A stretch of 64,000 bases of DNA from a bacterium (GTDB lineage Bacteria > Actinomycetota > Acidimicrobiia > Spongiisociales > JAHEDJ01), in NCBI GenBank assembly GCA_024641325.1, contig JAHEDJ010000002.1:74365-138364 (forward strand), in the 5' to 3' direction. This document shows positions 1,406 through 48,854 of the stretch, one piece after another; within the stretch, counting starts at the first letter, position 1; every line of letters begins with the position of its first letter. The translations under genes and the position numbers were made by a program. The notes beneath the pieces are model-generated. The model was not told the origin of the DNA and searched no databases. It saw only the letters and a program-made list of their open reading frames with translations.

Positions 1406-2977
1406 ATGACCGACGAAAATCCGTCAGACGAATCGCAGGACATCCCAGAAGACGCCGGCCTCGCCGCGCACCCGATCACGGCGCGCCGACTCGAGAAGCT
1501 CTCCGAGATCCGGGATGGAGGCGGTGAACCGTATGCCTACCGCTTTGACCGTACGGCAACGGCCGCCGATCTGCATGCGGAGTACGGCGACCTGCAACCG
1601 GGGGCCGAGACCGGCAGGATTGTCGCGGTCGCAGGCAGAGTGCTCAATGTGCGTAGCTTTGGGAAGCTCATGTTCCCGGTACTCCTTGATCAGACGGGAA
1701 GGATTCAGCTGTTCGTCGCCAGCAACACACTCGGAGCAGATGAGTTCGAGCGATTCGGCGGCGTTGATTCAGGAGATTGGGTGGGTGCCGAGGGCGAGAT
1801 AATCACCACCAAGAAGGGTGAGCTCAGCGTTCGCGTCCAGTCGTGGGTGTTGCTTTCGAAATCGCTCCGACCTTTGCCGGAGAAGTGGCACGGGCTCAAA
1901 GATGTCGAACGACGCTACCGCCAGCGATATCTAGATCTCATTGTGAGCGATGAGGCGCGCCGCATCGCAATGACCCGGTCGCGGATTCTTGCAGAGCTTC
2001 GCAAACAGTTCACCGACCGCGGCTACATCGAGGTGGAGACGCCGGTGCTTCAGTCACAAGCGGGCGGAGCCCTGGCGCGGCCGTTTGAGACCCATCACAA
2101 CGCGCTCGACATCGACATGTATCTGCGTATCGCGACCGAACTCCACCTCAAGCGGTTGGTAGTCGGAGGGATGGAGCGCGTGTTCGAACTGGGCCGGATC
2201 TTCCGCAACGAAGGGGTGGACACGACACACAACCCCGAGTTCACGACACTCGAGGCCTATGAGGCATTCGCCGATTACCGGGACATCATGGAGTTGGTGG
2301 AAGAGGTAGTGGCGGCAGTGGCCGAGGCTGCGACCGGATCGATGCAGATCGAATACGACGGTCGACCGATCGATTTCACGCCTCCCTACCGGCGGGCCAC
2401 CCTGCTCGACCTGCTATCTGAGGCGCTTGGGGAATCGGTGGGGTTCGACCTGTCGCTGACGGAAATGCGTGATCTGGCCCTTTCCAAGGGCATCACGCCT
2501 GATGCTGCCTGGGGCAAGGGCAAGCTGATCACCGAGTTGTACGAACACCTGGTTGAACCGAATCTGTGGGAACCCATCTTCGTGATCGATCATCCGAAAG
2601 AAACGTCGCCCCTTGCAAGAGTCCATCGCCGGGACTCGAACCTGACGGAGAGATTCGAGTTGTTCGCAGGAGGTATGGAGCTGTGCAACGCCTTTTCGGA
2701 ACTCATTGATCCACTCGATCAGCGAGAGCGCTTCGAGCAGCAGGCAAAGGCGAAGGCCGCCGGCGACGAGGAAGCCCACCCGATCGATGAGGACTTCATT
2801 CGCGCGCTCGAATACGGTATGCCTCCGACCGGTGGTCTCGGCATCGGCGTCGATCGTTTGGTCATGCTTTTAACGGGGCAATCGACGATCCGCGAAGTCC
2901 TGTTGTTCCCGCATCTGAAGCCGGAGACCAGCAACCGGCGGCCGCCGCCGGATCAGAGCTCAACGACGATCGGGTGA
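1406..2977 (+). CDS. lysS: Lysyl-tRNA synthetase, class II.
   Basis: Has the class II motifs FRNEGVDTTHNPEFTTLEAYEAF and GGLGIGVDRLVMLL with an N-terminal OB-fold region, and the panC-lysS order is conserved in Actinobacteria. Confidence 0.9.
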   Translation: MTDENPSDESQDIPEDAGLAAHPITARRLEKLSEIRDGGGEPYAYRFDRTATAADLHAEYGDLQPGAETGRIVAVAGRVLNVRSFGKLMFPVLLDQTGRIQLFVASNTLGADEFERFGGVDSGDWVGAEGEIITTKKGELSVRVQSWVLLSKSLRPLPEKWHGLKDVERRYRQRYLDLIVSDEARRIAMTRSRILAELRKQFTDRGYIEVETPVLQSQAGGALARPFETHHNALDIDMYLRIATELHLKRLVVGGMERVFELGRIFRNEGVDTTHNPEFTTLEAYEAFADYRDIMELVEEVVAAVAEAATGSMQIEYDGRPIDFTPPYRRATLLDLLSEALGESVGFDLSLTEMRDLALSKGITPDAAWGKGKLITELYEHLVEPNLWEPIFVIDHPKETSPLARVHRRDSNLTERFELFAGGMELCNAFSELIDPLDQRERFEQQAKAKAAGDEEAHPIDEDFIRALEYGMPPTGGLGIGVDRLVMLLTGQSTIREVLLFPHLKPETSNRRPPPDQSSTTIG

Positions 2978-3534
2978 TCCACGGTGGCTCGGCCCCTCAG
3001 CGACTCGATTTCTTCGAGAAGCGATCCGGCCTGACGGTTCTCGCCATTCTGTACCGCCACCAGCGTGAATACGGCTCTCAGGGTCAGGGATTCCAGATGT
3101 TCGGACTCCAGTCGGAGGATCGTGGCCAGGCGATCGAGAAGTGCCGTGACCCCCTCGACCTTGAACTCCCTCAGCACGGCTACATAAGTCAGGTGATCGA
3201 GATGGCCGATTTTGTCGACGCCTCTCAATGTTGCGCTCATCACGGCTTCGAGGTGCTTGTCCAGCCAGCGGTGGTCGTCATCGGCTGAGGTCGGCGGATC
3301 TGGGAGTCCCTCCACCTCGATGAGAAGAATCCCGAACTGGTCCTTTCGTCGGGAAAGCCAGTTCAAGGCCTCCTGGATTGCATCGAGTAGACCGTTCCGA
3401 TTGAGCGTGCCGGATGCAGGGTCGATCGGAGACAGTACGTCCAGTGCAAGCCTTAGGCGGCGGATCTCTTCATCACGTTCGAAGAGCGCCTTTTCGATGT
3501 CTTCGGGTTCGTCGTTGGTGGGGTCAATATCCAT
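2953..3534 (-). CDS. Degenerate GGDEF-domain protein whose GG(D/E)EF motif is replaced by HLDHLT while the RxxD I-site (RGVD) is retained; a likely c-di-GMP binding effector rather than a cyclase.
   Basis: The GGDEF fold signature is visible (LNRNGLLDAIQEAL; ILLIEVEGL in place of the IDLD metal site; RGVDKIGHLDHLTYVAVL in place of RxxD...GGDEF). The ORF track extends to 3708, but that N-terminal extension is Arg/Ser-rich low complexity, so the internal ATG at 3534 (MDIDPTNDEPED...) is preferred. Confidence 0.55.
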   Translation of the reverse strand: MDIDPTNDEPEDIEKALFERDEEIRRLRLALDVLSPIDPASGTLNRNGLLDAIQEALNWLSRRKDQFGILLIEVEGLPDPPTSADDDHRWLDKHLEAVMSATLRGVDKIGHLDHLTYVAVLREFKVEGVTALLDRLATILRLESEHLESLTLRAVFTLVAVQNGENRQAGSLLEEIESLRGRATVDHPIVVEL

Positions 3535-9809: not shown

Positions 9810-12305
9810 TTGTTCGAACGCTTCACAGACCGGGCTCGAAGAGTTGTTGTACTTGCTCAGGAGGAGGCGCGCCTTCTCAACCACAACTACATCGGCACCG
9901 AGCACATCCTCCTCGGGCTCATACATGAGGGCGAGGGTGTAGCTGCGCGCGGTCTGGAGAGCCTCGGCATCAACCTCGATTCGGTCCGGCAGCAGGTTGT
10001 CGAGATCATCGGTCAGGGCCAGCAGGCTCCGAGTGGACACATCCCGTTCACTCCTCGTGCCAAGAAGGTGCTGGAGCTGAGCCTGCGCGAAGCACTCCAG
10101 CTCGGTCACAACTACATCGGGACGGAGCACATTCTGCTCGGCCTCATCCGCGAAGGTGAGGGCGTTGCCGCCCAGGTGCTTCAAAAGCTCGGCGCCGATC
10201 TTCCGAAGGTCCGCCAGACCGTCATTCAGCTGTTGTCCGGAGTCCAGGGCGATGATCAGCCCTCGGTGTCTTCTTCTGCGAAAGGTCGGTCCGAGCAACC
10301 CTCGGGCGGGTCAACCATTCTCGACCAATTCGGTCGCAACCTCACACAATCTGCGCGTGAGCAGAAGCTCGATCCGGTCATCGGTCGTCAGACAGAAATC
10401 GACCGGGTCATGCAGATTCTTTCGCGGCGCACGAAGAACAACCCCGTCCTGATCGGTGAACCGGGGGTCGGCAAGACCGCCATTGTGGAGGGACTCGCCC
10501 AACGCATCGTTGCGAGCGACGTTCCCGATACGCTGACGAACAAGCAGCTCTATACCCTCGACCTGGGTTCGCTCGTGGCCGGCTCCCGCTACCGGGGGGA
10601 CTTCGAGGAGCGCCTGAAGAAGGTTCTGAAGGAGATCCGCACACGGGGCGATATCATTTTGTTCATCGATGAGATCCACACTCTCGTCGGTGCAGGAGCT
10701 GCGGAGGGCGCAATCGACGCGGCCAGTATTCTCAAGCCGATGCTGGCTCGGGGTGAGCTACAGACCGTCGGCGCCACCACACTCGAGGAGTATCGCAAAT
10801 ACCTCGAGAAAGACTCGGCCCTCGAGCGTCGCTTCCAGCCCATCCAGGTTGAAGAGCCGACTGTCGCCGAGAGCATTCAGATTCTGCAGGGCCTTCGCGA
10901 TCGATACGAGGCTCACCACAAAGTCCGTTTCACCGACCAGGCGCTCGTCAACGCCGCCAACCTCGCCGATCGCTACATCTCAGACCGTTTTCTACCGGAC
11001 AAGGCCATCGATCTGATCGATGAAGCGGGCAGCCGCATGCGCATCCGGCGGAAGGGTGGTATGCCGGAGCTGGAGGAGCTGGACGACCGAATCTTTGAGG
11101 TCAGAACCTCCAAACTGGAGGCCGTGCAGTCTCAGCAGTTCGAGCGAGCGGCGCAGCTGCGCGATCAGGAACGGAGCCTCACATCCGACCGAATGGCCAG
11201 AGAGCGTGAAGCAACGGAGTCTGGCATTCAGTCCACCTGGGTGATCGATGAAGAGGAAATCGCCGAAGTCCTGGCACAGTGGACCGGGATCCCGGTTCAT
11301 CGCCTGACCGAAGAGGAAACCGCCAGGCTCGTCCGAATGGAGGACGAACTCCACAAGCGGATCATCGGGCAACACGATGCGATCGCGGCGGTCAGCCGTG
11401 CGATCCGTCGGACCCGGGCCGGGCTCAAGGACCCCAAGCGTCCTGCCGGTTCGTTCATCTTCCTCGGACCATCTGGTGTTGGAAAGACCGAGACGGCCAA
11501 GGCGCTGGCCGAGTTCCTGTTCGGCGACGAGGCCGCGCTCATTCAGCTCGACATGTCCGAGTACATGGAAAAGCACACGGTGAGCCGCCTGGTTGGGTCT
11601 CCGCCCGGATACGTCGGTTACGACGAAGGCGGTCAGCTCACAGAAGCTGTGCGTCGCAAGCCGTTCTCCGTCGTCTTGTTCGACGAGATCGAGAAGGCAC
11701 ATCCCGACGTCTTCAATACGCTTCTCCAGATCCTCGAAGACGGCCGACTGACCGACGCGCAGGGCCGAACGGTCGACTTCAAGAACACGGTCATCATCAT
11801 GACTTCCAACCTCGGCACCTCCGAACTGCGCAAGAAGGCAGTCGGGTTCCACAAGGGCGATGAGGAAGTCACCTACGAGTACATGAAAGAACGGGTTACT
11901 GAAGCCCTGAAGAAGAACTTCCGCCCCGAATTCTTGAACAGGATCGATGAGGTCATCGTCTTCCACGAACTCCGCAAGGACGAGGTCAAGGAGATCGTCG
12001 ATCTCATGCTGGCCAGGGTGTACGACCAACTGCAGTCGCAGGGCCTCCAGTTGGCGCTGTCCGACGCCGCGAAGGGATACCTGGCCGACAGAGGGTACGA
12101 CCCCGAGTTGGGAGCGAGGCCGCTGCGCCGGGCGATCCAGCGCCGGCTCGAAGACGCTTTGTCCGAGAAGGTGTTGCTCGGAGAGTTCCGTGCCGGAACA
12201 ACTATCGTTGTGGATGTCGATCCGGAGACGAACGAACTCGTTTTCGAGGACGTTGAAGCCCCGGATCAGCCACCGGTAGAGATGGTCGACTCGCAGGACT
12301 CGTAG
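9810..12305 (+). CDS. clpC: ATP-dependent Clp protease ATP-binding subunit ClpC.
   Basis: The N-terminus [21 protein letters not shown] matches ClpC1, with duplicated Clp-N repeats, two AAA+ modules ([15 protein letters not shown] and [15 protein letters not shown]) and a TTG start with AGGAGG 10 nt upstream. Confidence 0.95.
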
Positions 12306-18508: not shown

Positions 18509-19426
18509 TCAGCTACTGGGCTTGCCGTAGAACTCCAGCTCTGCCAGCGCCAGCTCCGAGAACGGTATTCCGACGTTTCCGGTGTCGGGGTCGGTATAGG
18601 CCTCGGCCGGATAGGTTCCGGTGACCCTTATGGTCAGCTCAGTTGTGGCGAGTGTCTGAATCCTCACCGACTGAGGCTGCGACCTGTCGTCCAATGTGAA
18701 GTTGAACGGCGAGGTGACATCGTCGGCGATGATCTCGAGGTCCTTGATCCGGTAGTTCCGCTTGAACTTCTCCTCATCGTTCACGTTCATGATGACGATC
18801 GTCTCGAGTTGGACGGGAGAACCGAAGGTGATGACGAACTCTGCGCCTTCGCCCTCCAGGCTCTTGTCGTTCCAGTAGGTCTCGACAGATTCATCCTTGA
18901 GGTTCTCGCACGGGAGGCTGGCGAATTCCGAGGAGCATGAGATCAGCAACACCGGCAGTTTCTGGGTGGCCGGAACGGTCGCAGGGGTGGCGACGGTACT
19001 AGAGGTATCGGTGGCAGCCGTGTCGTCTGGGGAATCCCCGGTGAGGGCGCCGAAGGCCCATGCAATGAGGAGAACTCCTGCCAGGACGGCGGTGATCATG
19101 ATTGCCGCGCGGACTCCGGCGGATACCTGTAGGAGCGGCTGCGGGGCAATCGGGAGTGGCCCCTGTGAGAGGCGAGCTCCGCACTCTTCGCAGTGCCGGT
19201 TCGTTTCCGGGTTGCCTGCCCCACACGACGGGCAGGTGACGGAGTCGTAAGGAATGGTGGCGACGCCAGAGCCGGCGTCTTCCAGATAATCGTCGGGCGG
19301 CGCGGTATCGAGATCGAACTGCTCGAACTCATCATCCGCCAGGGGGTCGACCCATTGACCGCATTGCGGACAGAACTGATCATCTGAGAAGTGGGTTCCA
19401 CAGTTAGTGCAGGTGTGTTCGCTCAA
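18509..19426 (-). CDS. Membrane protein with an N-terminal double zinc-ribbon, a transmembrane helix and a C-terminal F5/8-type C (discoidin-like) domain.
   Basis: Two CxxC...CxxC ribbons (CTNCG...CPQCG and CPSCG...CEECG), a hydrophobic helix AAIMITAVLAGVLLIAWAF, and then ETYWNDKS...GEGAEFVITF. It uses a TTG start with GAAGGAAGGA 7 nt upstream. Confidence 0.6.
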   Translation of the reverse strand: MSEHTCTNCGTHFSDDQFCPQCGQWVDPLADDEFEQFDLDTAPPDDYLEDAGSGVATIPYDSVTCPSCGAGNPETNRHCEECGARLSQGPLPIAPQPLLQVSAGVRAAIMITAVLAGVLLIAWAFGALTGDSPDDTAATDTSSTVATPATVPATQKLPVLLISCSSEFASLPCENLKDESVETYWNDKSLEGEGAEFVITFGSPVQLETIVIMNVNDEEKFKRNYRIKDLEIIADDVTSPFNFTLDDRSQPQSVRIQTLATTELTIRVTGTYPAEAYTDPDTGNVGIPFSELALAELEFYGKPSS

Positions 19427-19657: not shown

Positions 19658-20947
19658 ATGACTTTTCATTGCGGCGAATGTGGCTACCGATCAGGCAAGT
19701 GGATGGGGTTCTGCCCCCAGTGTCGATCGGACGCCGGTTTGGTCGAGGATGACCGGGCTCGAAATCCCCGACCCCTTCCGACTCCGGTCCCGCTTTCGGC
19801 TGCCGGCAACAAGAACGTAGTACGAGCGGCCGTTGGGATTGCCGAGATCGACAGGGTGCTCGGCGGCGGCCTGGTACCCGGCTCAGTTGTGCTCGTGGGC
19901 GGCGAGCCCGGTGTCGGCAAGTCGACCCTGCTCCTCCAGGTGGCCGGGAGTCTTGCGAGGGCAGGCAGAAAGGTGTTGGTCGCGACTGCCGAGGAGTCCG
20001 AGGATCAGGTGGGGCTGCGGGCCCGTCGGCTCGATGTGATCGACGATGATGTCTTCCTCCTCGCAGAGGAGGATGTTGATGCCGTCATTGCAGCTACCGA
20101 AGAGTTGCGTCCTGATGTACTGATAGTCGACTCGATTCAGGCTGTGAGTGTCGCCGAGGTCGGGAGCGGAGCGGGCTCTGTGGCTCAGGTTCGTGAATGC
20201 GGTGCTCGCCTCACGAGGTTCGCGAAGGAGGAGGACGTCGCGGTGATATTGGTTGGTCATGTCACCAAGGACGGTGGGATCGCCGGGCCCAAACTTCTCG
20301 AGCATATGGTTGACGTTGTGTTGTACCTCGAGGGGGAGTCCGACCGGGGTTTACGTACCCTACGCAGCCTCAAGAATCGATTCGGCGCCACCCACGTCGT
20401 TGGACTCTTCGAAATGGCGACGAGCGGCCTCACCGAGGTTGCTGATCCATCTGCGGTCTTCCTGGCAGGTTGGCGCCATGCCGTGGCGGGATCCGTGGTG
20501 GTGCCCGCAGTCCAGGGCCGCCGGCCGGTGCTGGTCGAAGTTCAGGCTCTCGTCGCCCCCACGAGGCTCGTCCAACCGCGCCGCAGCACACGCGGCTTGG
20601 AAGCCGCACGCCTTCACCAATTGCTCGCGGTCCTGGCCCGTCATGGAGGTGTCCCGTTCGACGATCGCGAGGTCTATGTCGGCCTCGTTGGTGGCCTGCG
20701 CGTAGTCGAGCCGGCGATCGACGTGCCGGTGGCTCTGGCGTTGGTTTCGTCGCTACTCGATGAGCCGCTCGGCAAGCTGGCCGCATGGGGTGAGGTTGGG
20801 CTTACCGGGGAAATCAGAGCGGTGCCTCACGAATCTCGACGCCGGGAGGAAGCCCAACGGTTGGGAGTTGAGCGCATCGTTTCTCCTTCCGACGTTGCCT
20901 CATTGTCGGAAGCGCTGGAGTGGGCAGGCCTGACTCCCGGTAGCTGA
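19658..20947 (+). CDS. radA: DNA repair protein RadA/Sms.
   Basis: Has an N-terminal C4 zinc finger, Walker A GEPGVGKST, the KNRFG motif and a Lon-like C-terminus. A TAAGAT -10 lies 6 nt before the ATG, so the transcript is probably leaderless. Confidence 0.9.
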   Translation: MTFHCGECGYRSGKWMGFCPQCRSDAGLVEDDRARNPRPLPTPVPLSAAGNKNVVRAAVGIAEIDRVLGGGLVPGSVVLVGGEPGVGKSTLLLQVAGSLARAGRKVLVATAEESEDQVGLRARRLDVIDDDVFLLAEEDVDAVIAATEELRPDVLIVDSIQAVSVAEVGSGAGSVAQVRECGARLTRFAKEEDVAVILVGHVTKDGGIAGPKLLEHMVDVVLYLEGESDRGLRTLRSLKNRFGATHVVGLFEMATSGLTEVADPSAVFLAGWRHAVAGSVVVPAVQGRRPVLVEVQALVAPTRLVQPRRSTRGLEAARLHQLLAVLARHGGVPFDDREVYVGLVGGLRVVEPAIDVPVALALVSSLLDEPLGKLAAWGEVGLTGEIRAVPHESRRREEAQRLGVERIVSPSDVASLSEALEWAGLTPGS

Positions 20948-20953
20948 TCGCGA

Positions 20954-20993
20954 GCTGCTACCTGCCACCTGCCACCTGTTACCTGCTACCTCC
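20954..20993. repeat. Tandem heptamer array (GCTGCTA CCTGCCA CCTGCCA CCTGTTA CCTGCTA CCTCC) in the radA-disA spacer.
   Basis: Direct read of five to six 7-mers with consensus CCTGCYA. Confidence 0.8.
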
Positions 20994-21021
20994 CCGGCAC
21001 GTGTAGTACCCTCTGCAGGAA

Positions 21022-22089
21022 ATGTCTGGCCCCGTCACTCTTCACCAGGTTCTCGAACGCTTGGCACCGGGAACTCCGCTTAGACAAGCCGTCGAGCGCA
21101 CCATCCAGCAGCGAAACGGCGCGCTCGTCATCCTCGGTTTCGATTCGACCGTCGAGGGACTCTGCAGTGGCGGTTTCGAACTCGCCAACTCTGTGTTCAC
21201 CCCTGCCAAGCTCGCCGAACTGGCGAAGATGGACGGGGCAATCGTGATGAACAACGCCGGCGATCAGATACTCCGCGCCAACGTGCACCTCTTGCCGGAT
21301 CCGAAATATGGTACGGATGAGACCGGCGCCCGCCATCGGACTGCCGAACGAACGGCCCAGCACACCGGCAAGCCGGTGCTCAGCGTGAGCGAGGACCGTC
21401 GTACAGCGACCCTGTTCATCGACGGAACGAAGCACGAACTTCTGAGCCCGACTCTGGTGGCCGCCAGTGTCAATCAATCCCTCCAGACTCTCGATCGCTT
21501 CCGGAGACGGCTAGACGACGCAGAAGAGATCCTCACTCGCTCGGAGATTGCGGATCTCGTCACGTTCCGCACGGTTCTCGCGGTGCTGCAGCGATCAGAG
21601 TTGGTCCGAAGGATCGGTCAGGAAATCAAGCAGGACGCGGTTGGCCTTGGCGAAGAGGGAAGTCTGATTTCCCTCCAGATCGCCGATCTGATTCATGGGG
21701 TCGACGAGCTTCGACAGCTCATTCTGGCGGACTATGTTCGCCCTAATCGTCGCAGTCGCGTTCAAGGAGCGCTAAGCGACCTCGAGGCTATCCCGACGGC
21801 AGATCTCACCAGCGCCGAAGCCGTGGCTCAGGCGCTCGGCCTTGATGAGCCGGATAACGAGGCGAAGGCCCGCGGGGTGCGGCTCTTGTCACAGGTTCCC
21901 AGGCTGCCCGACACCGTTCGGACGGCCATAGTCCGGCATTTCCGCAATCTCCAAGGGCTGCTCGCTGCTTCGGCGGCCGATCTCGAGCGAGTGGAAGGTG
22001 TGGGGGCCGCCCGCGCTGAACAGATTCGACAGTTCTTCGATCGGATGCAGGACCGAACACAGATGTGGCAGTCAACCTTCCCCGACTGA
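21022..22089 (+). CDS. disA: DNA integrity scanning protein DisA (diadenylate cyclase).
   Basis: Has DAC-domain motifs (DGAIVM, RHRTAERTAQHTG) and a C-terminal HhH, and follows radA as in Bacillus and Mycobacterium. Confidence 0.9.
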   Translation: MSGPVTLHQVLERLAPGTPLRQAVERTIQQRNGALVILGFDSTVEGLCSGGFELANSVFTPAKLAELAKMDGAIVMNNAGDQILRANVHLLPDPKYGTDETGARHRTAERTAQHTGKPVLSVSEDRRTATLFIDGTKHELLSPTLVAASVNQSLQTLDRFRRRLDDAEEILTRSEIADLVTFRTVLAVLQRSELVRRIGQEIKQDAVGLGEEGSLISLQIADLIHGVDELRQLILADYVRPNRRSRVQGALSDLEAIPTADLTSAEAVAQALGLDEPDNEAKARGVRLLSQVPRLPDTVRTAIVRHFRNLQGLLAASAADLERVEGVGAARAEQIRQFFDRMQDRTQMWQSTFPD

Positions 22090-22139
22090 CGGGCTGGGGC
22101 CGACGCGAGGTACACTGACTCGCCCCTACGAGAGTTTCC

Positions 22140-22997
22140 ATGGCCACGAAGAAAACCCCTGCAACTGAGAAGCCTGCCGCCAAGAAGGCTGCGGCGAAAA
22201 AGCCTGCTGCCAAGAAGACTGCCGCGGCAGCCAAGCCCGCTGCGTCCAAGAAGGCAGCCGTTGCCAAATCTGGTACTAAGGCGGCGGGAGTGAAGAAGCC
22301 TGCTGCTAAGAAGACTGCCGCGGCAGCCAAGCCCGCTGCGTCCGAGAAGGCAGCCGTTGCCAAATCTGGTACTAAGGCGGCGGCAGTGAAGAAGCCTGCT
22401 GCTAAGAAGACCGCGGCCGCTCCGACGGCTGCTGCCAAAAAGGCGGCCGGTGCTGAGGCTACCGGCAAGGCAGCAGCACCGCGACGTAAGAAGAAGACGT
22501 CGCCGTTCAGCGTGGGCGACAAGGTAGTTCATCCACATCATGGAGCCGCCGTGATTACGAAGAAGGTCAAGCAGGAAGTCGCCGGGGAGAAGCGGGACTA
22601 TTTCGTTCTCGCGATCGCTACCGACCAGCTCACCGTCTTTGTCCCTATCGACAACATCGAGGACACGATTCGGCCGGTCATCTCCAAAGCTGCGGCCAAG
22701 CGTGTCTTTCAGCTCTTCAAGGACGAACCACAGGAAGCCGGCAGCAACTGGTCGCGTTGGTACAAGGTCCTGAACGAGAAGATGACGAGCGGCGATATCT
22801 ACCAGGTTGCTGAAGTCGTCCGGGACCTGACGTTCGCTCAGCAGACCAAAGGCATCTCGCCCGCACTCAAGCGCATGTTGAGCAAGGCCCGTCTCACGCT
22901 CACCAGCGAACTCCAGTTTGCGCTGGCCATTGATGACGAAGAGGCGACCAAGAGGCTCGATCGAGCACTTCCCAAAGTAGAGACCGAAGAAAGTTAG
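22140..22997 (+). CDS. carD: CarD/CdnL-family RNAP-binding transcription regulator carrying an N-terminal histone-H1-like AKKA-repeat extension of about 125 aa.
   Basis: The CarD N-domain FSVGDKVVHPHHGAAVITKK...DYFVLAIATDQLTVFVPIDNIE is preceded by the lysine/alanine repeat AAKKPAAKKTAAAAKPA. Confidence 0.85.
   Translation: MATKKTPATEKPAAKKAAAKKPAAKKTAAAAKPAASKKAAVAKSGTKAAGVKKPAAKKTAAAAKPAASEKAAVAKSGTKAAAVKKPAAKKTAAAPTAAAKKAAGAEATGKAAAPRRKKKTSPFSVGDKVVHPHHGAAVITKKVKQEVAGEKRDYFVLAIATDQLTVFVPIDNIEDTIRPVISKAAAKRVFQLFKDEPQEAGSNWSRWYKVLNEKMTSGDIYQVAEVVRDLTFAQQTKGISPALKRMLSKARLTLTSELQFALAIDDEEATKRLDRALPKVETEES
22200..22391. repeat. 96-bp tandem direct repeat (x2, plus a 19-bp partial third copy) inside carD.
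   Basis: Units 22200-22295 and 22296-22391 differ at 3 of 96 positions; each encodes KPAAKKTAAAAKPAAS(K/E)KAAVAKSGTKAA(G/A)VK. Confidence 0.9.
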
Positions 22998-23008
22998 GGA
23001 GGACCGCT

Positions 23009-24073
23009 GTGGTCGTTGAGGCCGTTCGCCTGCTGATCACGTTGGTCCTGACCGCCGTCGGCTTCCAGCTCGGAGATGCCCTTTCCGACCGATATCCGGA
23101 GGTTATGGGGTTGTCCGATACAGCCTCCGTGGTCGGCGCAGTGCTGGGTGCCGGAGTGGGCTATGTCGGTGGCGGTATGTTCGGCCGTGCCTTTCGCACC
23201 CGTCTGGAGGTCGCGCCGGAGCGTTTGGTGGCACGAGTGTCGGGACCAAGCCTGTTTGCCGGCGCATTCGGGGTTGTAACCGGCTTGCTCGTGGGGATTG
23301 TCTTCTCGATTCCCGTCGTCCTGTTTCTTCCGCCGGCGATTGGCTGGCCGCTGGCGGCACTCGTCGTGTTGCTGCTCATCTTGATAGCAGTCCGGGTCTT
23401 CATGGCGCGCGCCGAGGATCTGCTCGCGGTAGCGGGTCTGCGCAGCCGGGGACCCTTGCGAGGCGTCAGTCTCGAGGAGGATGAGCGGGCACATCTAATC
23501 GACTCTTCTGCGGCCATCGACGGTCGCCTGCTTGCGCTCGTGCAAACCGGCCTGGTGGAAGGCAGATTGTGGGTCCCGGCCTTCGTCGTCGACGAGCTGC
23601 AGGGGCTCGCCGACGCTGGTGACGCTGGTCTCCGCAGGCGCGGGCGTCGGGGCCTCGAGGCACTCGAAGCGCTGCACGGCGCTACTTCCGAGTTCATGGT
23701 TCTCGAAGAGGCCGTGCCGGAGTTCGAGGATGTCGACGCCAAACTGCTCCAACTCGCTTCCCGGGCCGGCGCCCGCCTGGTCACGACCGACTACAACCTT
23801 TCCAAGGCGGCGGAACTGCGCGGCATAGTCGTTCTCAATCCGAGCGTTCTGGGGGAGAAGCTGAAGCCGATTGTGAGCACCGGGGAGACCCTCACTGTGA
23901 CCGTTTCCAAGCCCGGCAAGGGAGCCGGGCAGGGTGTCGCCTATCTGGACGACGGGACGATGGTGGTCGTGGAGGAGGCCGGCAAACTGGTGGGTCAGGA
24001 CATCGAGGTGGTCGTGACGAGTACTACCAGGACGGCTGTGGGCCGTATGTTGTTTGCCCGCCCCGCTTCATGA
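23009..24073 (+). CDS. PIN and TRAM domain membrane protein, YacL-like.
   Basis: N-terminal transmembrane helices are followed by a PIN-like domain and a C-terminal TRAM beta-barrel (GETLTVTVSKPGKGAGQGVAYLDDGTMVVV). Its position between disA/carD and ispD matches B. subtilis yacL. Confidence 0.7.
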   Translation: MVVEAVRLLITLVLTAVGFQLGDALSDRYPEVMGLSDTASVVGAVLGAGVGYVGGGMFGRAFRTRLEVAPERLVARVSGPSLFAGAFGVVTGLLVGIVFSIPVVLFLPPAIGWPLAALVVLLLILIAVRVFMARAEDLLAVAGLRSRGPLRGVSLEEDERAHLIDSSAAIDGRLLALVQTGLVEGRLWVPAFVVDELQGLADAGDAGLRRRGRRGLEALEALHGATSEFMVLEEAVPEFEDVDAKLLQLASRAGARLVTTDYNLSKAAELRGIVVLNPSVLGEKLKPIVSTGETLTVTVSKPGKGAGQGVAYLDDGTMVVVEEAGKLVGQDIEVVVTSTTRTAVGRMLFARPAS

Positions 24074-24675
24074 GTATCTCGGGCATCGTTGTTGCCGCAG
24101 GTTTAGGGCGTCGGTTCGGCGCCATGAAGCAACATGTAGAACTCGATGGTGTGCCTCTATGGCAATGGGCGCGGAGGGCGCTAATCGAGGGTGGCGTCGA
24201 CGAAGTCGTTGTCGTTGGTCCGGTCGAGGGTGGCATTGCCGGCGGGGAGCGCAGGCGTGACTCTGTTGCGGCCGGGCTTGGAGAGATATCCGATCAGGCC
24301 ACGTTCGTTCTCGTGCATGATGCGGCTCGGCCGCTTGCAAGCGCCGATCTGGTCGGTCGCGTCATCAAACGCCTGGAACAGGGAGATGTTGACGGCGTAG
24401 TTCCGGTTGTTCCCGTCCGGGACACGTTGAAGGAAGTTTCCGGGCAGGACATTGTCTGCACCGTTGATCGGCTGAACCTGGTCACGGCACAGACACCTCA
24501 AGGGTTCCGTGTCTCGACACTCGCTCGGGCGCATGCATCAATCACTGGAGATGCCAGCGACGATGCGTCGATGGTCGAGGCTGTCGGCGGCACCGTTGCC
24601 TGGGTGACCGGCCATCCGGGTAATTTGAAGCTGACTTATCCAGAGGACCTGAAGGTATTGGAGGCCCTGTTGTGA
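24070..24675 (+). CDS. ispD: 2-C-methyl-D-erythritol 4-phosphate cytidylyltransferase.
   Basis: Has VAAGLGRRFG and the VHDAARP motif. At 201 aa it is short for IspD, so the start is uncertain. Confidence 0.8.
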   Translation: MSISGIVVAAGLGRRFGAMKQHVELDGVPLWQWARRALIEGGVDEVVVVGPVEGGIAGGERRRDSVAAGLGEISDQATFVLVHDAARPLASADLVGRVIKRLEQGDVDGVVPVVPVRDTLKEVSGQDIVCTVDRLNLVTAQTPQGFRVSTLARAHASITGDASDDASMVEAVGGTVAWVTGHPGNLKLTYPEDLKVLEALL

Positions 24676-25151
24676 CCAGTGTCGGTTGGGGTTATGACGT
24701 TCATGCCTTTGGCGGGCTCGGACCACTGGTGCTGGCGGGTGTGATCATCGATCCAGATCGCGGATTGGCCGGGACATCTGATGCAGACGTGGTGGCGCAC
24801 GCCGTCTGTGATGCACTCCTCGGTGCGGCCGCCCTGGGTGATCTGGGTCAACTGTTCCCTTCTTCCGACCCTCGGTGGCTGGGTGCCGATTCGATGGCAT
24901 TGCTCGGCGATGTGGTCACTCGCTTCGTCGGCGCCGGGTTCGGCGTCTTGCATCTCGACGTGTCTGTGGTTGCAGAGCGGGTTCGAATCGCGCCGCACCG
25001 AACTGCCATGCGGGAGCGTCTGGCGGCGACGGTGGAGGTCGGAATCGAGAGAGTCTCTGTCAAAGCGACAACGACAGACGGCCTCGGTTTCGTCGGCCGT
25101 GACGAGGGATTGGCCGCCGTGGCGGTGGTGACCGCCTCTAGACCCGCCTAG
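24672..25151 (+). CDS. ispF: 2-C-methyl-D-erythritol 2,4-cyclodiphosphate synthase.
   Basis: Has GYDVHAF, SDADVVAHAVCDALLGA and the GDLG motif at 159 aa. Confidence 0.9.
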   Translation: MTSVGWGYDVHAFGGLGPLVLAGVIIDPDRGLAGTSDADVVAHAVCDALLGAAALGDLGQLFPSSDPRWLGADSMALLGDVVTRFVGAGFGVLHLDVSVVAERVRIAPHRTAMRERLAATVEVGIERVSVKATTTDGLGFVGRDEGLAAVAVVTASRPA

Positions 25152-25164
25152 CATCCGACCCCGC

Positions 25165-26565
25165 ATGCAGTTCTTCAACACACTCGGTCGGACCCTCGAA
25201 ACGTTCGTCCCGCGCGATCCGGGCAAGGTCTCGATGTATGTCTGCGGCCCCACCGTGCAATCGGAACCTCACCTGGGTCATGGACGCGCGGCTGTGGCGT
25301 TCGACGTGATTCGTCGTTACTTGCGGTGGCGAGGATTTGAGGTGACACATGTTCAAAACGTCACCGACATCGAAGACAAGATCATCGCCGCGGCAAACGA
25401 ACGTGGGATGCCGGTAGCCGACCTCGCCGCTGAGATGACCGCACGCTTTGATGCTGCCTATCGCAGCCTCGGGGTCGAACGACCCGATATCGAGCCCCGG
25501 GCAACAGAGCATATCGACCAGATGCTCGACCTCATCTCGACTCTCATCGAGCGCGGTCTGGCATATCCCGCCGGCGGGGACGTCTACTTCTCCGTTCGCT
25601 CCCTGCCTGGATACGGGAAGCTCTCTGGCAGGAACCTGGACGACCTCCTGGCAGGTGCGCGCGTCGCAGTGGGTGAGGACAAGAGAGACCCTCTCGACTT
25701 TGCCCTGTGGAAGGGAGCCAAAGAGGGAGAACCCCAGTGGGATTCTCCGTGGGGCCCCGGTCGACCCGGCTGGCATATCGAGTGCTCGGCAATGGCGGCT
25801 GAGTACCTGGGGGATGGCTTCGACATTCACGGCGGGGGAGTGGACCTTGTCTTCCCGCATCACGAGAACGAGATCGCCCAATCTGAGGGCGCAGGGGCTG
25901 CTTCCTTCGCTCGCTACTGGCTGCACAACGAGATGTTGAACCTGGGCGGAGAGAAGATGGCCAAGTCCACCGGTCACGTCATCGACCTCGCCACGGCCAT
26001 CCGTCGGTTCGGGGGGCCAACGGTGCGGCTCTTCTACCTGCGCGCTCACTATCGGTCGCCGCTCGAGTATTCGGAGCAACTACTCGATGACGCCGGAGCG
26101 TCGCTGGAGCGGTTGCAGGCCTTTCGCCGGCGTTCGGCCGCCGGCGAGTCTCCGGCGGACCCGGAGCTGATGGAACGGTTCACCATTGCCATGGACGATG
26201 ACTTCAACACGCCGGACGCCCTCGCCGTTGTCTTTGAGGCGGTGAAGGAAGGAAATCGCCGGCTCGACGAGGGCCTCGATGCCGGTCCGACGATCGCCGC
26301 GTTTTCCTCGATGATCGACGTCCTCGGCCTCGATCTGACGGAATCAGGTGGGGATGATTTGGGGACGCTGCTCGGCGTGATCGCCAGACGATTCGGTGTG
26401 ACGGGCCGGTCGATCGAAGACATCATGGCTGGTCTTCTGGCATTGCGAGCCCAGGCGAGAGGTGAGCGGGACTGGGTGACCTCCGATGGCATTCGGGACG
26501 AACTAGCCGGTATCGGAGTGATTGTGGAGGATGCGGTCGATGGTGCCCGCTGGCATCGGGGATAG
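25165..26565 (+). CDS. cysS: Cysteinyl-tRNA synthetase.
   Basis: Has CGPTV, HLGHGR (HIGH) and KMAKSTG (KMSKS) at 466 aa. Confidence 0.9.
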
Positions 26566-34859: not shown

Positions 34860-34935
34860 TGGAGCCGGGTATCGGAATCGAACCGATGACCACTTCTTTA
34901 CAAGAGAAGAGCTCTACCGACTGAGCTAACCCGGC
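34860..34935 (-). tRNA. tRNA-Thr(TGT): tRNA-Thr (anticodon TGT) with CCA encoded.
   Basis: Manual cloverleaf: acceptor GCCGGGT/ACCCGGC, D-arm GCTC-AGTCGGTA-GAGC, anticodon arm CTTCT-CTTGTAA-AGAAG, T-arm ATCGG-TTCGATT-CCGAT. Confidence 0.85.
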
Positions 34936-48781: not shown

Positions 48782-48854
48782 CGCCCGCGGCAGGAATCGA
48801 ACCTGCGACCTACTGCTTAGGAGGCAGTTGCTCTATCCCCTGAGCTACGCGGGC
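48782..48854 (-). tRNA. tRNA-Arg(CCT): tRNA-Arg (anticodon CCT) without encoded CCA.
   Basis: Manual cloverleaf: acceptor GCCCGCG/CGCGGGC, D-arm GCTC-AGGGGATA-GAGC, anticodon arm ACTGC-CTCCTAA-GCAGT, T-arm GCAGG-TTCGATT-CCTGC. Confidence 0.85.

Follow-up and report, generated by a model that had tools for sequence, protein, structure and literature searches.

The window analysed here, a stretch of 64,000 nucleotides (nt) from contig JAHEDJ010000002.1 of an Acidimicrobiia bacterium, carries a carD gene whose product joins a two-domain core of the CarD/CdnL type to an N-terminal tail of 122 residues rich in lysine, alanine and proline (K/A/P). In mycobacteria CarD is essential and regulates transcription initiation globally; nearly all work on it concerns a 160-residue protein of two domains. 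The CarD with an N-terminal tail described below is real, is widespread in one bacterial class and is mechanistically suggestive; the positions of the gene, of its parts and of the surrounding features are collected in Table 1.

Table 1. Features of the carD locus and of the remainder of the window (positions count from the first letter of the window; aa, amino acids; bp, base pairs; TRF, Tandem Repeats Finder; RNAP, RNA polymerase; Mtb, Mycobacterium tuberculosis)
Feature	Position	Strand	Basis
carD gene, ATG start, 285 aa plus stop	22140..22997	+	Open reading frame list; identical protein P0001 in NCBI
-10-like hexamer TACACT, 22 nt upstream of the ATG	22112..22117	+	Conservation among relatives only
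N-terminal K/A/P-rich tail, residues 1-122, predicted disordered	22140..22505	+	Composition, AlphaFold2
Short 15/30-bp periodic KKPAAKK-type repeats, seed of the larger duplication	22170..22226	+	TRF periods 15 and 30
96-bp repeat unit 1 (KPAAKKTAAAAKPAASKKAAVAKSGTKAAGVK)	22200..22295	+	TRF and direct comparison
96-bp repeat unit 2, 3 differences from unit 1	22296..22391	+	Direct comparison
Partial third copy, first 20 nt same as unit 2	22392..22411	+	TRF and direct comparison
Tudor-like RNAP-interaction domain (RID), residues 123-181	22506..22682	+	Pfam PF02559 (CarD_TRCF_RID), E 6.8e-16
Codon of Q145, Mtb R25 position	22572-22574	+	Alignment to Mtb CarD
CarD_C helical DNA-fork-binding domain, residues 188-274	22701..22961	+	Pfam PF21095, E 1.7e-25
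Codon of W204, equivalent of the Mtb W85 minor-groove wedge	22749..22751	+	Alignment to Mtb CarD
radA and disA, conserved upstream neighbours	19658..22089	+	Pfam; same order in L018-L020
PIN/TRAM membrane protein, ispD, ispF and cysS, conserved downstream neighbours	23009..26565	+	Pfam and called genes of L018-L020
Two tRNA genes, sole Rfam matches in the window	34863-34935 and 48782-48854	-	Rfam

Residues 123-277 match residues 3-158 of Mtb CarD (E 5e-34, about 45% identity) and form a complete CarD/CdnL core of the stand-alone type. The initial annotation had placed the start of this domain at about residue 120, and both Pfam (PF02559 at 58.5 bits, cut-off 23) and the alignment with Mtb CarD bear this out, beginning at residue 123. 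In an AlphaFold2 model built from 66 homologues, residues 121-280 have a predicted local distance difference test score (pLDDT) of about 90, as do the predicted beta strands of the RID, and Foldseek superposes the model on the RNAP-bound CarD chains 6edt_M and 8hvr_H with a template-modelling score of 0.80 and a root-mean-square deviation of 3.0-3.1 A. The core is neutral in charge, unlike the tail, and the protein ends 8 residues beyond the CarD_C domain, with no HMGA-like (AT-hook) or H1-like domain at the C-terminus, its only basic region being N-terminal.

The residues by which CarD acts at promoters are kept. A tryptophan is found at the W204 position in 119 of 120 close homologues (here and below the best 120 of the 1,707 retrieved with the full protein from 5.8 billion proteins, a query that biases the set towards tails) and in 121 of 122 distant ones, and the accompanying basic patch is represented by K209 and K244, the equivalents of Mtb K90 and K125; the roles of W85, K90 and K125 in the promoter activity of CarD have been described (PMC4381055, PMC10232725, PMC4593161). 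The RID of the protein would dock on the beta1-lobe of RNAP, as in mycobacterial CarD, and W204, by homology, would wedge into the minor groove, slowing the collapse of the bubble and stabilizing the open promoter complex. One position departs from the mycobacterial pattern. Mtb R25 forms a salt bridge to E138 of the RNAP beta subunit, and the R25E substitution weakens RNAP binding; the basic residue, which is frequent in the family without strictly defining it, is absent here and replaced by Q145. Glutamine occupies the position in 88 of the 120 close homologues, while 86 of 120 distant representatives have arginine or lysine, and the change from R25 to Q marks the clade as a whole, members with short tails included. 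The gene rpoB lies outside the window. The position of R47 had also been considered as a marker of RID integrity and was dropped, being conserved nowhere in the family.

Pfam assignments give the gene order around carD as clpC (9810-12305), followed at a distance by radA, disA, carD, the gene of a PIN/TRAM membrane protein, ispD, ispF, cysS and a gene for a SpoU-type methyltransferase, an order that is identical in three close relatives (loci L018, L019 and L020). The locus thus conforms to the conserved actinobacterial carD neighbourhood (radA/disA ... carD-ispD-ispF-cysS), and because its gene order is shared both with these three relatives and with the mycobacterial carD-ispD-ispF-cysS arrangement, the gene is identified as the housekeeping carD orthologue, in single-copy position, of an Acidimicrobiia bacterium.

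The tail that precedes this core is of extreme composition. Its 122 residues comprise 32 lysines, 2 arginines, 49 alanines, 10 prolines, 11 threonines and 3 glutamates with no aspartate, giving a net charge of +31 and an isoelectric point of 11.1, and the motifs AKKA, AAKK and PAAKK occur 2, 6 and 4 times respectively. AlphaFold2 assigns it a pLDDT of about 50 and no secondary structure. No Pfam HC2 match at E<=0.01 is found in the protein; precomputed PF07382 matches exist in some of its homologues, and ‘histone H1-like repetitive region-containing protein’ is the name that the NCBI pipeline gives to some of these homologues. When all six frames of the 64-kb window were scanned, no K/A-rich tract besides the carD tail was seen, so that within the window the tail is specific to this gene, one window being unable to speak for the whole genome.

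At the DNA level the tail is built of repeats. Tandem Repeats Finder reports a period of 96 bp over 22196-22411 (2.2 copies, 96% matches, score 404), with nested periodicities of 15, 30 and 33 bp at 22168-22226. Two 96-bp units of about 97% identity followed by a partial third had been noted at the outset, and direct comparison agrees: units 1 and 2 differ at 3 of 96 positions (96.9% identity), namely 22211 (C/T, synonymous), 22248 (A/G, K to E) and 22288 (G/C, G to A), and in the third copy the first 20 nt match unit 2 exactly. The 20-nt direct repeat AAGCCTGCTGCYAAGAAGAC, which encodes KPAAKKT, stands at 22200, 22296 and 22392, the layout expected for a duplication by slippage or unequal recombination between short direct repeats.

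The proposal that the expansion is recent, made by slippage or recombination, and that tail length would vary between strains is borne out by the relatives. The 96-bp duplication, flanked here by AAGCCTGCTGCYAAGAAGAC, is absent from all three of the closest loci, which are about 90% identical in nucleotide sequence to the window. Two of these, L018 and L019, have flanks that are 99.97% identical over 6 kb and tails that differ by a 36-bp in-frame indel, while L020, at 99% identity, shows a tail difference of 6 bp. On a wider scale, cores that are 100% identical over 160 residues are joined to tails of 116, 128 and 143 aa, a figure inflated by clustering at 90% identity, in which it is the difference in tail that splits such proteins apart, and in a set with one genome per species the tails of related species measure about 8, 20, 73 and 178 aa. 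The repeat units also differ by lineage (KKPAA, KKPAV, KSESKPAAAKSSRPA or SSAKS), and the expansions are therefore independent. These comparisons show that the tail gains and loses repeats in frame, through tandem duplications and through deletions between short direct repeats (replication slippage or unequal recombination), so that its length varies between species and between near-identical strains; the 96-bp duplication of the window is one recent event of this turnover.

Whether the tail belongs to the protein at all is a separate matter, and the initial annotation had named an internal methionine just before the CarD domain as the possible true start. There is none, the upstream ATG being the conserved start: no in-frame Met codon lies inside the tail, and the only alternative start codons are GTG at 22290, 22386 and 22512. 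Were one of these used, the frame upstream would be untranslated or separately translated and merely kept open by its G+C content. Long open frames are indeed common in G+C-rich DNA, and two antisense open reading frames of 237-238 aa cover the same region; there is, in addition, no strong Shine-Dalgarno sequence before the ATG at 22140, and a generic scan of 21900-23100 for two-hexamer sigma-70 promoters and for terminators found nothing. Against such an internal start, the beginning of the protein is conserved whatever the length of the tail (5-207 aa): MATKK opens 53 of the 120 close homologues and an MA.K-like sequence 88 of them, and in the shortest, MATKKAPFAVKDKVVHPHHGAA, the same start is fused straight to the domain. 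The MA(T)KK start is preceded, at a distance of 7-35 nt, by a conserved -10-like element (TACACT, TACAAT, TACTAT or TAGACT) in the window as well as in 12 other loci (L001, L003-L012 and L018), and in several of them this putative element is so near the ATG that the mRNA must have little or no leader. The end of disA lies only 50 nt before the ATG, and initiation at GTG 22512 would remove F123 and S124, first-strand residues that align with F3 and K4 of Mtb CarD.

Selection acts in the carD frame as well. The ratio of nonsynonymous to synonymous substitution rates (dN/dS) was taken against L018, about 90% identical to the window, and in the tail over the alignable codons only. Tail codons 1-14 differ at 4 nt, all synonymous (dN/dS 0), and the last 38 tail codons show 13 synonymously changed codons and 8 amino-acid changes (dN/dS 0.125); the 163 codons of the core, with 41 synonymously changed codons and 7 amino-acid changes, give 0.042, and the 355 codons of disA give 0.038. 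This excess of synonymous change is difficult to reconcile with an untranslated tail, as is the fact that the indels among L018, L019 and L020, of 36 and 6 bp, are all multiples of three. The conserved MATKK start, the -10-like element, purifying selection in frame and in-frame indels are four independent lines on which we conclude that the tail is translated from the conserved start, as initially proposed for the H1-like tail ahead of the CarD core. An internal start, for which no in-frame ATG and no supported GTG candidate is available, was rejected, and a protein lacking the tail is exceedingly improbable.

The two antisense reading frames themselves (21806-22541, minus strand) were set aside as stop-poor by-products of the repeat rather than genes; their translations are of low complexity (A/L/G/F-rich and R/L/S/G-rich). 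In one homologous locus (L002, about 2540-3000 of CAVPPF010000003.1, from a nanopore-based metagenome-assembled genome) the frame of the MATKK tail is not that of the CarD core. A single indel would restore the frame, and one such error of the long-read assembly is the simplest explanation, the alternative being a genuine frameshifted allele.

Nearly all of the 120 close homologues are CarDs of Acidimicrobiia type with N-terminal tails rich in lysine, alanine, proline, threonine or serine (median about 109 aa), and N-terminal tails, 5-207 aa in length, are present in more than 100 CarD clusters of Acidimicrobiia. A search free of the tail bias, made with the core alone against 1.84 billion representatives at 50% identity, restricted N-terminal K/A/P tails to the closest clusters (P0121, P0124-P0127 and P0132, at 61-77% identity); the likewise close P0122 and P0123 have 5-6 residues before the domain, and beyond about 52% core identity N-terminal extensions are not K/A-rich. 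In four distant CarDs (P0142, P0154, P0158 and P0164, with core identities of 41-49%) it is the C-terminus that bears a basic K/A/P-rich tail, of 59-131 aa. N-terminal K/A/P tails are confined to this clade, and the overall distribution suggests that H1-like tails have been gained independently on either end of CarD.

The same searches returned tandem CarD-CarD fusions in related Acidimicrobiia, namely P0121 (641 aa; its cluster has 10 members, on contigs of up to 2.77 Mb) and P0008, P0011, P0015 and P0024 (334-371 aa). In these a more divergent first unit (AHPRHGTAV, DSDWRVWYK) is followed by a canonical second one, with a K/A/P/R linker of about 25-50 aa between them, and in P0121 a K/A/P tail of 287 aa precedes the tandem units. 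Two RNAP-interaction domains and two tryptophan wedges in a single protein are odd and, as far as we have found, undescribed.

The variability of the tail invites the explanation that it is a near-neutral, low-complexity expansion of a short, slippage-prone basic seed (MATKK...KK), which would lengthen or shrink at random and leave the working of CarD unaffected. Consistent with this, 84% of the pairs of close homologues whose cores are at least 97% identical differ in tail length over the range of 5-207 aa, near-identical strains are polymorphic, repeat units differ from lineage to lineage, and the same clade contains species in which just 5-8 residues precede the domain. A neutral expansion would, however, account poorly for the constancy of composition across most of the set, in which tails of the K/A/P type usually keep aspartate plus glutamate at or below 0.05 and lysine at about 0.2-0.37 in spite of different, independently expanded units. 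It also sits poorly with the dN/dS of 0.125 on non-repetitive tail codons, with the conservation of both the N-terminal MATKK and the junction RRKKK-SPF, and with a reading frame that is always kept, the single frameshift in the nanopore-based L002 excepted. We therefore regard a tail without effect on CarD as rather unlikely.

It is probable, in our judgement, that the protein combines a housekeeping CarD core with a translated, disordered, polycationic tail of 122 residues whose length turns over through its repeats, and that this tail tethers CarD to DNA. DNA binding, which the initial annotation had predicted as non-specific anchoring, is inferred because the tail has a charge of +31, is predicted to be disordered and has precedents. 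HbhA binds DNA independently of sequence through its C-terminal AKKA domain, which is both necessary and sufficient for this, and the tail of HupB behaves likewise (PMC10665949). In the CarD proteins of Anaeromyxobacter dehalogenans and Vulgatibacter incomptus the DNA-binding module is an H1-like domain (PMC9304148). By analogy with the AKKA/PAKKA tails of HupB and HbhA and with histone H1, the tail would bind nucleic acid electrostatically and without sequence preference. It would thereby keep CarD concentrated on the nucleoid and, since the RID is near the upstream part of the bubble, would add DNA contacts beside the promoter. Both effects would raise the effective affinity of CarD for initiation complexes, such that less CarD would be needed to stabilize the open complex.

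Several observations weigh against this tethered, repeat-driven CarD. The resemblance of the tail to histone H1 is compositional only and not one of homology, and the NCBIfam H1-like model NF038053 scores 24.4 bits, well short of its cut-off of 80. Sister lineages with cores 75-84% identical have tails of only 5-14 residues, and a long tail is for this reason dispensable for CarD function in the clade. The contig is, moreover, metagenome-assembled, so the exact number of repeats is open to assembly effects.

A functional tail might also have its main partner elsewhere than in promoter DNA, whether in RNA or polyphosphate, or in condensates, or might, being rich in lysine and threonine, be a platform on which modification or proteolysis adjusts the level of CarD. 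A disordered polycationic tail will bind polyanions of any kind, and an association of the H1-like AlgP with the polyphosphate granules of Pseudomonas has been reported (PMC9239181); the N-terminal region of Mtb sigma-A, which is disordered, undergoes phosphorylation and is functionally important (PMC10011835); and many of the homologous tails are rich in threonine or serine, with threonine fractions of up to 0.29. The protein is, however, an RNAP-bound promoter factor for which DNA is the nearest polyanion, the tail contains no S/TPxK sites and no specific kinase or protease motif was found in it, and the sole CarD with an H1-like domain to have been studied uses that domain as its DNA-binding module. 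Another main partner is accordingly judged very unlikely.

The tethering proposal can be carried further, to a CarD that is a hybrid of initiation factor and nucleoid-associated protein, in which the length of the rapidly mutating tail would set how firmly CarD, and RNAP through it, is held on DNA, and would thereby tune the stability of open complexes globally and with it rRNA output and growth rate from strain to strain. The tail may also offset a weakened contact of the RID with the beta subunit (R25 to Q), and the tandem protein P0121 would be the extreme of this trend. This extension we consider distinctly unlikely.

Two further features of the surrounding DNA deserve mention. The PIN and TRAM membrane protein encoded between carD and ispD (23009-24073, plus strand, 354 aa) is YacL-like, and its stop codon overlaps the start of ispD. 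The cluster therefore merges the Bacillus-type arrangement disA-yacL-ispD-ispF with the actinobacterial carD-ispD-ispF order. Upstream of and divergent from radA lies a gene (18509-19426, minus strand) for a protein of 305 aa that begins with zinc ribbons and ends with an NADase_transloc (F5/8 type C-like) domain; the gene occupies the same place in L018-L020. An Rfam scan of the window returned nothing near carD.

An actinobacterial class with a hypervariable polycationic tail on CarD amounts to a natural experiment, one that bears on the non-specific tethering of an RNAP-bound factor to DNA and on the rate at which disordered regions evolve in core transcription proteins. If the tail alters open-complex kinetics, its length would offer a simple handle on CarD recruitment in vitro. 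In principle a tailed CarD is unsurprising, K/A/P tails being common on actinobacterial nucleic-acid-binding proteins. A literature search found no description of a CarD with an N-terminal H1-like tail: a census of 2010 gave actinobacterial CdnL proteins lengths of 137-301 aa and no identifiable DNA-binding domain (PMC2919716), and a structural census of 2015 was limited to CarD homologues of 120-200 aa.

With the CarD/CdnL proteins of Mtb, Streptomyces and Thermus, which are binders of the RNAP beta1-lobe and open-complex stabilizers of about 160 aa, the protein shares the same two domains and homology along the full length of the core. The likeness to Mtb CarD extends to the equivalents of W85, K90 and K125 and to a carD-ispD-ispF-cysS neighbourhood next to radA/disA. 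The differences lie in the 122-residue polycationic disordered extension ahead of the RID, in Q145 at the position of R25 and in the PIN/TRAM gene between carD and ispD. The N-terminal extension of Mtb sigma-A is of mixed basic and acidic character, and we know of no report of repeat-length polymorphism in it. It too is a long disordered N-terminal extension on an actinobacterial initiation protein, unseen in structures and functionally important (PMC10011835). The AKKA/PAKKA tails of mycobacterial HupB and HbhA have the same K/A/P repeat chemistry and bind DNA independently of sequence (PMC10665949), but these are C-terminal tails of nucleoid-associated proteins, whereas here the tail is found on an RNAP-bound initiation factor and the AKKA motif is rare. 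P0142, P0154, P0158 and P0164 likewise unite a CarD core with a basic K/A/P tail, although at the C-terminus.

Among myxobacteria, CarD of Myxococcus xanthus also combines an RNAP-binding module with a basic, disordered, eukaryote-like DNA-binding region. This region is a C-terminal HMGA-like domain with AT-hooks, while the present protein has no AT-hook (RGRP) motifs, bears its tail at the opposite terminus and belongs to another lineage with other partners. The present architecture is not a singular case, given the more than 100 Acidimicrobiia clusters, and the AT-hook protein of Myxococcus with which the initial annotation compared it gives way to a closer precedent. In CarD of A. dehalogenans and V. 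incomptus, an RNAP-interacting module is likewise joined to a K/A/P-rich, H1-like region without AT-hooks, which is C-terminal and belongs to a specialised paralogue; the partner CarG, a zinc-binding protein with a metalloprotease motif, is encoded adjacent, and a separate essential CdnL coexists (PMC9304148). Here, by contrast, the tail is N-terminal and is carried by the housekeeping CdnL-type orthologue, and no carG-like gene adjoins carD, its neighbours being disA and the PIN/TRAM membrane protein gene. With its basic region at the wrong terminus and no carG, the protein is not of the myxobacterial CarD-CarG type. The union of a CarD module with an H1-like region, hitherto described only from myxobacteria, would thus have arisen independently in this class, at the opposite terminus.

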